From Escherichia coli O127:H6 str. E2348/69 (GTDB lineage: Bacteria; Pseudomonadota; Gammaproteobacteria; Enterobacterales; Enterobacteriaceae), in the NCBI RefSeq assembly GCF_000026545.1, contig NC_011601.1: 64,000 nt of DNA; one strand, 5' to 3'. Numbering within the stretch: position 1 is the stretch's first letter; every line of letters starts with the position of its first letter. Shown here piece by piece: positions 44,586-46,492 of the stretch. The notes under the pieces were generated by a model. It did not search any database, was not told where the DNA came from, and saw nothing but the letters and a program-made list of their open reading frames with translations. A program made the position numbers and the translations under genes.

Positions 44586-45842
44586 ATGTTCCGCCGTCTG
44601 CTTATCGCAACAGTCGTCGGTATTCTTGCGGCCTTTGCCGTTGCCGGGTTTCGTCATGCAATGCTGCTACTGGAGTGGTTGTTCCTCAATAATGACTCCG
44701 GCAGTCTGGTCAATGCAGCGACAAATCTTTCCCCATGGCGACGGCTGCTAACTCCGGCGCTCGGCGGACTGGCGGCGGGTTTGTTGCTGATGGGCTGGCA
44801 GAAATTTACCCAGCAACGCCCTCATGCGCCGACCGATTACATGGAAGCGTTGCAAACCGATGGGCAGTTTGATTACGCAGCAAGCCTGGTTAAATCGCTT
44901 GCCTCTCTGCTGGTAGTAACCAGCGGCAGTGCAATTGGTCGCGAAGGTGCGATGATTCTTTTAGCTGCCCTTGCCGCCTCCTGTTTTGCCCAACGTTTTA
45001 CGCCACGCCAGGAGTGGAAATTATGGATCGCCTGTGGAGCTGCGGCGGGAATGGCTGCGGCCTATCGCGCCCCGCTTGCTGGCAGTTTATTTATAGCCGA
45101 AGTGCTGTTTGGCACTATGATGTTGGCCTCTCTCGGCCCGGTGATTATTTCCGCCGTCGTGGCGTTGCTGGTTAGCAATCTGATTAATCATAGCGACGCG
45201 TTACTCTACAGCGTACAACTCTCAGTGACGGTTCAGGCTCGTGACTATGCGCTGATTATCAGTACAGGTGTGCTGGCAGGTCTGTGCGGACCACTGTTGT
45301 TAACGTTAATGAACGCCTGTCATCGTGGATTTGTAAGTCTCAAACTTGCGCCGCCCTGGCAACTGGCACTGGGCGGGTTGATCGTGGGTCTGCTTTCCCT
45401 GTTCACACCTGCAGTGTGGGGCAACGGCTATAGCACCGTACAATCCTTTTTAACCGCTCCGCCACTGTTAATGATCATTGCCGGGATCTTCCTCTGTAAA
45501 CTGTGTGCCGTGCTGGCGAGTAGTGGTTCTGGCGCGCCCGGTGGTGTCTTTACACCGACGCTATTTATCGGTCTTGCCATTGGCATGTTGTATGGTCGTA
45601 GCCTGGGATTATGGTTCCCTGATGGCGAAGAAATTACGCTTTTACTCGGATTGACCGGGATGGCGACACTGTTGGCGGCAACCACGCACGCGCCGATTAT
45701 GTCGACGTTGATGATATGTGAAATGACCGGGGAGTATCAGCTACTCCCCGGTTTATTGATTGCCTGCGTAATTGCGTCGGTAATTTCGCGGACGTTACAC
45801 CGTGACTCTATCTACCGCCAGCACACTGCGAAGCATAGCTAA
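44586..45842 (+). CDS. clcB: ClC-family voltage-gated chloride channel protein
   Basis: 418-aa protein from [17 protein letters not shown], with GSAIGREG and GVFTPTLF ClC selectivity motifs. Confidence 0.85.
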
Positions 45843-46492
45843 GCGGATGTATTGCCCCAGTTCACGCTGTTCGGCGCGCGGCAGATAAGGCAGTTCACCA
45901 ATGAGCGGTGCCGGAAGTTTTTTACCGAGCACATCAATGATTTCCGCATAATGCGCAAGTCCTGGATTGATTCGGTTAGCCACCCAGCCAGCATGAGCGG
46001 CAGCCCGTCGTTGGCAATCGCCTGAGCTGTTAGCAGTGCATGGTTAATGCAACCTTCCTGAATACCGACAACCATCAACACTGGCAGTTGTTCCTGCACC
46101 ACCCATTCAGAGAGCGGACGCAAATCATTCATCAGACTGCGCCAGCCGCCAGTCCCTTCTACCACGACATGATCGACTTTATCGGTCAGGTTTGCCAGGC
46201 CGTTTGAAATGAGGGTGTAATTGATTGGGCAACTGTGCGCCACGCTACTTTCTTCTTCGCTTAACGCGATAGGATTAACTGCTTCATAAGGCAGTTCGAT
46301 GGTTGAAACACTCTGCAACACCAGGGCATCTTTATTACGCAGCCCTTCGGGTGTCTCTTTGCTCCCCTTCGCTACGGGTTTATATCCCGCAACCGTTTTT
46401 CCCTGGGAGGCTAACGCTTGTAGCAATGCGCGGGAAACCACCGTTTTCCCTACAGAAGTGTCTGTACCGGTAATAAAGAAACGCTTCAGCAT
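45795..46492 (-). pseudogene. ynfK: dethiobiotin synthetase-like protein, apparently frameshifted
   Basis: N-terminal 165 aa (MLKRFFITGTDTSVGKT, P-loop) in one frame to about 45990; the BioD-like C-terminus (GWVANRINPG...PAPLIGELPYLP) continues in a different frame to 45795. Confidence 0.65.

Follow-up and report, generated by a model that had tools for sequence, protein, structure and literature searches.

Does the interrupted dethiobiotin synthetase gene in the genome of Escherichia coli O127:H6 strain E2348/69 reflect a genuine loss of the gene, or could the interruption be an error of the deposited sequence? In the stretch of 64,000 nucleotides that we analysed (NC_011601.1; hereafter the window), the ynfK pseudogene, a bioD paralog, occupies positions 45795–46492 on the minus strand, where its 698 nucleotides consist of 696 nucleotides plus two inserted bases. 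A first-pass annotation made from the letters alone had recognised the gene as the BioD-like paralog ynfK, an identity that genome comparison, synteny, and annotation all sustain. The gene lies between mlc (46617–47837) and the convergent clcB, which ends at 45842, and the conserved order mlc–ynfK–clcB with its convergent 3' overlap is present here. Synteny and sequence identify the gene as orthologous to ynfK of K-12 (b1593).

The ynfK ATG lies at 46492 on the minus strand, and the coding sequence starts with MLKRFFITGTDTSVGKT. The frame that begins there encodes 217 residues (45839–46492, minus strand), and its product corresponds exactly to CAS09225.1 and UniRef100_B7URT2. This reading frame contains 166 native residues, including the P-loop, K40, and VEGTGG, followed by an out-of-frame tail of 51 residues; from residue 167 on, the product has the unrelated sequence MLAGWLTESIQDLRIMRKS until the stop at 45839–45841. 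The native C-terminal segment, G168–V231 with its stop codon, is stranded out of frame at 45795–45989 on the minus strand and encodes GWVAN and PAPLIGELP, two motifs conserved with BioD. In this downstream frame, a GTG at 45983 opens a reading frame of 62 residues (45795–45983, minus strand; MANRINPGLAHYAEIIDVLGKKLPAPLIGELPYLP), which translates into exactly the C-terminal residues of the intact E2348/69 protein. Apart from short unrelated contigs of other samples, a look-up of this 62-residue frame found no matches. The P-loop GTDTSVGKT, the stop at 45839, and the C-terminus in a separate frame from 45983 to 45795 had been read correctly in the first pass, as the list of open reading frames and the sequence confirm. 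The break itself was also recognised, but 166 native codons (M1–L166) precede it instead of the 165 that had been counted, and I167 is the interrupted codon. The convergent 3' overlap between ynfK and clcB normally spans 48 nucleotides (45795–45842), and with the frameshifted stop only a few translated bases still overlap. Because no gene in the same orientation follows ynfK, polar effects are not expected.

Alignment with the intact E2348/69 copy in CP059840.2 located the lesion as an inserted dinucleotide GC at 45991–45992 (minus strand) inside the codon for I167 (AT|GC|T), in the context CTCAT[GC]TGGCTGG. The allele with GC reads CTCATGCTGGCTGG, and the allele without it reads CTCATTGGCTGG. 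A 2-nucleotide insertion at CTCATGCTGGCTGGGTGG had been anticipated from the reading frames, and both its site and its size were verified by this alignment and by removal of GC in silico. The latter yields an open reading frame of 696 nucleotides, whose 231-residue product matches WP_000919226.1 (CP059840.2) residue for residue. The insertion site contains neither a homopolymer nor a low-complexity stretch. The inserted GC creates a tandem GCTG-GCTG, but it is neither a homopolymer slip nor a simple tandem duplication, and we found no convincing template for it. We also observed a direct repeat, CCGCTCATTGG, inside ynfK in two copies that start at 45908 and 46000 on the minus strand, 92 nucleotides apart; the first copy is broken by the GC insertion. 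A Logan protein of 201 residues from another sample (P0002) carries an in-frame deletion of 30 residues lying exactly between both copies. Because this deletion joins the two copies exactly, the repeat appears to be a deletion hotspot.

What would the frameshift mean for the protein? The N-terminal GTDTSVGKT, GYKPV, and VEGTGG of the first reading frame align to E. coli BioD and the structure 1a82. When the frame is restored, YnfK shares 50% identity over its full length with BioD of the same genome and with the crystallised E. coli BioD (1a82, 1dad). The P-loop, K-P-V, E-G-x-G-G, GWVAN, and PAPLxGExP are all common to restored YnfK and E. coli BioD (PDB 1a82, 1dad, and 1byi), which is a paralog and not an ortholog of YnfK and is encoded in the bioABFCD operon, intact in this genome. 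The NCBIfam equivalog TIGR00347 (bioD) scores 127.5 bits for the frameshifted and 134.2 bits for the restored protein against a cutoff of 83.3, but this model of 166 positions ends at about residue 172, near the break, and is blind to the truncation. Because both forms exceed that cutoff, we used Pfam AAA_26 to assess the truncation; it matches residues 3–166 of the frameshifted product, covering model positions 1–159 of 198. A domain match that stops at the break, and a native C-terminus in the downstream frame, show that the arrangement did not come about by chance. The domain is not complete in any one frame, as the GWVAN segment is encoded in another. The frameshift directly precedes GWVAN, so that both GWVAN and PAPLIGELP, conserved between the paralogs, are lost, and the protein lacks its last 65 residues, amounting to 28% of a single-domain P-loop fold. 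In E. coli BioD, the GWVAN and PAPLxGExP segments presumably line the adenine pocket, as we take Asn175 (N172 in YnfK) and the loop 204–211 to do. With the conserved C-terminal segment missing and 51 foreign residues in its place, the frameshifted YnfK is almost certainly inactive in the family's reaction, in which the ureido ring is closed on 7,8-diaminopelargonate at the expense of ATP. As judged from its sequence, the locus is a pseudogene of the BioD family and not a functional member of it.

Among the closest known systems is YnfK of E. coli K-12 (b1593), a dethiobiotin synthetase according to Song & Cronan (2021, Mol Microbiol 116:1315), as far as that work is cited in PMC12542698. Both genes lie at the same mlc/clcB locus, and orthology extends over the first 166 residues. 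Once restored, the 231-residue protein is a full-length dethiobiotin synthase by TIGR00347, whose cutoff of 83 bits it passes with 134. The E2348/69 gene differs by the +2 frameshift at codon 167, which makes the C-terminal 65 residues unencodable.

How widely is this lesion distributed? A megablast search with the locus covered 5,426 complete E. coli genomes and found ynfK in 5,421. With a 60-nucleotide probe centred on the insertion, just two of the 5,426 genomes, LT827011 and LT903847, matched at 100%, whereas the other genomes among the probe matches listed aligned with a 2-nucleotide gap. Both are 100% identical to the window at the locus, where RefSeq annotates the ynfK span as 'bioD, dethiobiotin synthase, frameshifted' (pseudo). 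LT827011 belongs to EPEC E2348/69 'variety 2', which was obtained through Imperial College from the Sanger Centre; its engineered derivative, EPEC1, is represented by LT903847. CP059840.2 is likewise an assembly of E2348/69. Over 64,000 bp, a single 2-nucleotide gap and no mismatch separate it from the window, and its ynfK is intact, the ancestral state common to the other E. coli genomes examined. The first-pass annotation had proposed asking whether related strains share the frameshift, and the answer is therefore that two complete genomes do, whereas another assembly of the same strain does not. In an exact-protein look-up covering about 15 billion proteins, assemblies of public runs included, the 217-residue product occurs on only four contigs, the fourth carrier being the Logan contig ERR294530_210 (39,828 bp). 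Sequences derived from E2348/69 were the only ones in which we saw the GC at codon 167. The frameshift in E2348/69 is already known, as it is recorded in GenBank, UniProt, and RefSeq; in FM180568, CAS09225.1 bears the product name 'dethiobiotin synthetase, with altered C-ter by frameshift mutation', chosen by the depositors.

The insertion could have been an error of the original capillary genome (FM180568/NC_011601) inherited by LT827011 and LT903847, with the gene being intact in reality. The intact ynfK of CP059840.2, which bears the same strain label, would agree with such an error, as would the way in which the other two assemblies were made. LT827011 and LT903847 were obtained from MiSeq reads at 210x and 112x coverage, respectively, by de novo A5 and reference-guided assembly (PMC5685641); since NC_011601 guided the latter step (BWA/samtools), they retain some dependence on the original sequence. 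Reference indels can be carried through into a reference-guided consensus, and we thus regard these two assemblies as supportive but not decisive for the GC. On the other hand, their authors assembled the reads de novo with A5 as well and described the agreement with NC_011601 as perfect, four large gaps aside (PMC5685641). The original annotators explicitly recorded a frameshift mutation, and the site is neither homopolymeric nor of low complexity. The decisive observation comes from the Logan contigs, which are built reference-free, each from the raw reads of a single public run. The 20,101 bp that we retrieved of ERR294530_210 are 100% identical to positions 35839–55939 of the window and contain CCGCTCATGCTGGCTGGGTGG including the GC, a support given at the level of the assembled contig. 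Considering the depositors' annotation, the MiSeq assemblies, this contig, and the non-homopolymer site together, we judge a sequencing artefact to be very improbable. The evidence thus favours a genuine pseudogene, which was one of the two options left by the first-pass annotation, over an indel error: the GC is found in the reference-free ERR294530 assembly as well as in two Illumina-based assemblies. Raw reads of reference length, which the first-pass annotation had named as its refutation, are thus not indicated by this read-derived contig.

If the mutation is real, which stocks of E2348/69 carry it? The intact ynfK in CP059840.2 means that the lesion is not established as a trait of every E2348/69 stock. 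One might suppose that the frameshift is present in all stocks including the original isolate, and that CP059840.2 was 'repaired' by homology-based polishing. CP059840 stands at version.2 and has hence been revised, and a full-text literature search did not find its sequencing and polishing method, both of which leave room for such a repair. However, CP059840.2 has no other difference in 64 kb, which fits a read-polished assembly and not a noisy long-read assembly, and the confinement of the 217-residue product to just four contigs in about 15 billion proteins argues against a widespread allele. We therefore think it unlikely that all stocks share the frameshift. The lack of any further discrepancy in 64 kb suggests instead that CP059840.2 is well polished and came from a stock without the mutation. 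Most likely, the GC insertion was born in, or is restricted to, the Sanger/Imperial-derived laboratory lineage of E2348/69. Under either reading of the stocks, the window's copy of ynfK is truly a pseudogene. According to PMC5685641, four large segments of NC_011601 (about 40.8, 22.5, 52.3, and 1.4 kb) are missing from LT827011. Together with the ynfK difference of CP059840.2, these large gaps indicate that stocks called 'E2348/69' are genetically non-uniform.

The enzyme activity might also have been kept despite the frameshift, either by programmed frameshifting (recoding) or by the reassembly of separately expressed halves. The downstream reading frame begins with a GTG (45983), which could be taken to favour a split enzyme, but nothing further does. 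Of the 5,421 genomes with the gene, 5,419 lack the lesion, which is thus unconserved, and a slippery heptamer, a homopolymer, and an in-frame stop are all lacking at the site. Repairing the frame would take a +1 or -2 shift, and the break interrupts the conserved core right before GWVAN. In prfB and dnaX, genes with programmed frameshifts, a conserved site and a slippery or stall motif are expected, and the ynfK site has neither. We ruled out a recoded or split functional enzyme because of this non-conservation and the lack of recoding signals, and its probability appears vanishingly small.

We consider it highly probable that ynfK suffered a genuine and recent loss of function by the GC insertion in a laboratory lineage of E2348/69, which is tolerated via bioD. 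The insertion of GC in codon 167, having arisen in or being confined to the Sanger/Imperial/Madrid laboratory lineage, would have shifted the reading frame, leaving the cell with only a 217-residue protein of 166 native and 51 nonsense residues. The loss would be tolerated because the intact bioD in bioABFCD could supply the same activity. The bioA/bioBFCD cluster including bioD (WP_000030920.1) is annotated as intact in LT827011, and the presence of this intact housekeeping cluster makes tolerance of the ynfK loss probable. The mutation also appears to be very young, as the gene has no second lesion, its upstream region is undecayed, and the second E2348/69 assembly is intact. Compared with the intact allele of CP059840.2, the ynfK upstream region is identical. 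It includes a tentative FNR-box-like candidate, TTGCGCTATCTCAA (46578–46591, minus strand), which was found by a scan only, agrees with the consensus at 7 of 10 positions, and is centred 92.5 nucleotides upstream of the ynfK ATG. In K-12, FNR binds ynfK and activates it directly (PMC3688515), and according to PMC12542698, which cites Song & Cronan (2021), the ynfK dethiobiotin synthetase is expressed only in anaerobiosis.

Several other features of the window were noted. A three-gene Lamassu-type anti-phage defence operon lies at 1259–4663 on the plus strand (PADLOC: LmuA, 2e-133; LmuC, 1.9e-54; LmuB, 6.4e-176), and its genes are labelled in RefSeq as 'ABC-three component system' proteins and an AAA ATPase. 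Beyond it, the features at 5660–6061 (plus strand), 6185–6574 (minus strand), and 6682–8270 (minus strand) comprise a truncated retron-type reverse transcriptase, integrase remnants, and hipBA. The PADLOC model RT_I-A matched the reverse transcriptase over positions 1–123 of 308 only; next to it lie the toxin-antitoxin pair hipBA and the integrase remnants. The reverse transcriptase remnant, the integrase remnants, and hipBA resemble a decayed islet, either mobile or devoted to defence, beside the Lamassu operon. RefSeq annotates the short leftovers of two genes between dcp and dgcZ, one for a 2-oxo-tetronate isomerase and the other ydeI, as well as a remnant of yneK (approximately 24820–25028 and 17482–17583, coordinates transferred from CP059840.2); these are scars of lineage-specific deletions. 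The gene for the replication terminus-site binding protein, tus, begins at 63533 and runs past the window end at 64000, which places the window in the terminus region of the chromosome.

The loss of ynfK is not unique to E2348/69. Eight independent pseudogenisations of ynfK, with bioD untouched, have been reported in one lineage of Shigella sonnei (PMC6811581). Outside the window, the 90% protein cluster that holds the 217-residue product (P0003, P0011, and P0015 are among its members) contains other alleles: a 216-residue product, frameshifted after VLGK and present on 124 contigs, with S. flexneri K-272 and E. coli among the carriers; a frameshift allele of 149 residues; an allele of 147 residues on 49 contigs, which ends before Cys148 and which we read as a nonsense allele; and the 201-residue in-frame deletion between the two copies of CCGCTCATTGG. 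The lesions differ from the E2348/69 insertion, but the outcome is the same, in that the redundant paralog was independently lost and bioD retained. The occurrence of several inactivating ynfK alleles in E. coli and Shigella agrees with the convergent pseudogenisation in S. sonnei. Could selection, as opposed to a neutral process, lie behind the loss of ynfK in E. coli and Shigella adapted to humans, with the E2348/69 frameshift as one more convergent hit? By analogy to the proposal for S. sonnei, selection may act on ynfK loss, for example, through a down-tuned anaerobic biotin synthesis, but we consider this doubtful for the case at hand. If it were true, two widely used and supposedly 'identical' E2348/69 stocks would differ in their anaerobic biotin physiology.

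In summary, a redundant paralog was knocked out by a small insertion, which is of little importance for biology at large. The E2348/69 case adds one more example to the recurrent inactivation of ynfK in E. coli and Shigella. It also provides one useful nuance, namely, that public assemblies of the prototype EPEC strain E2348/69 disagree at ynfK, so that work on ynfK or anaerobic biotin synthesis in this strain needs the allele of the stock to be checked first.
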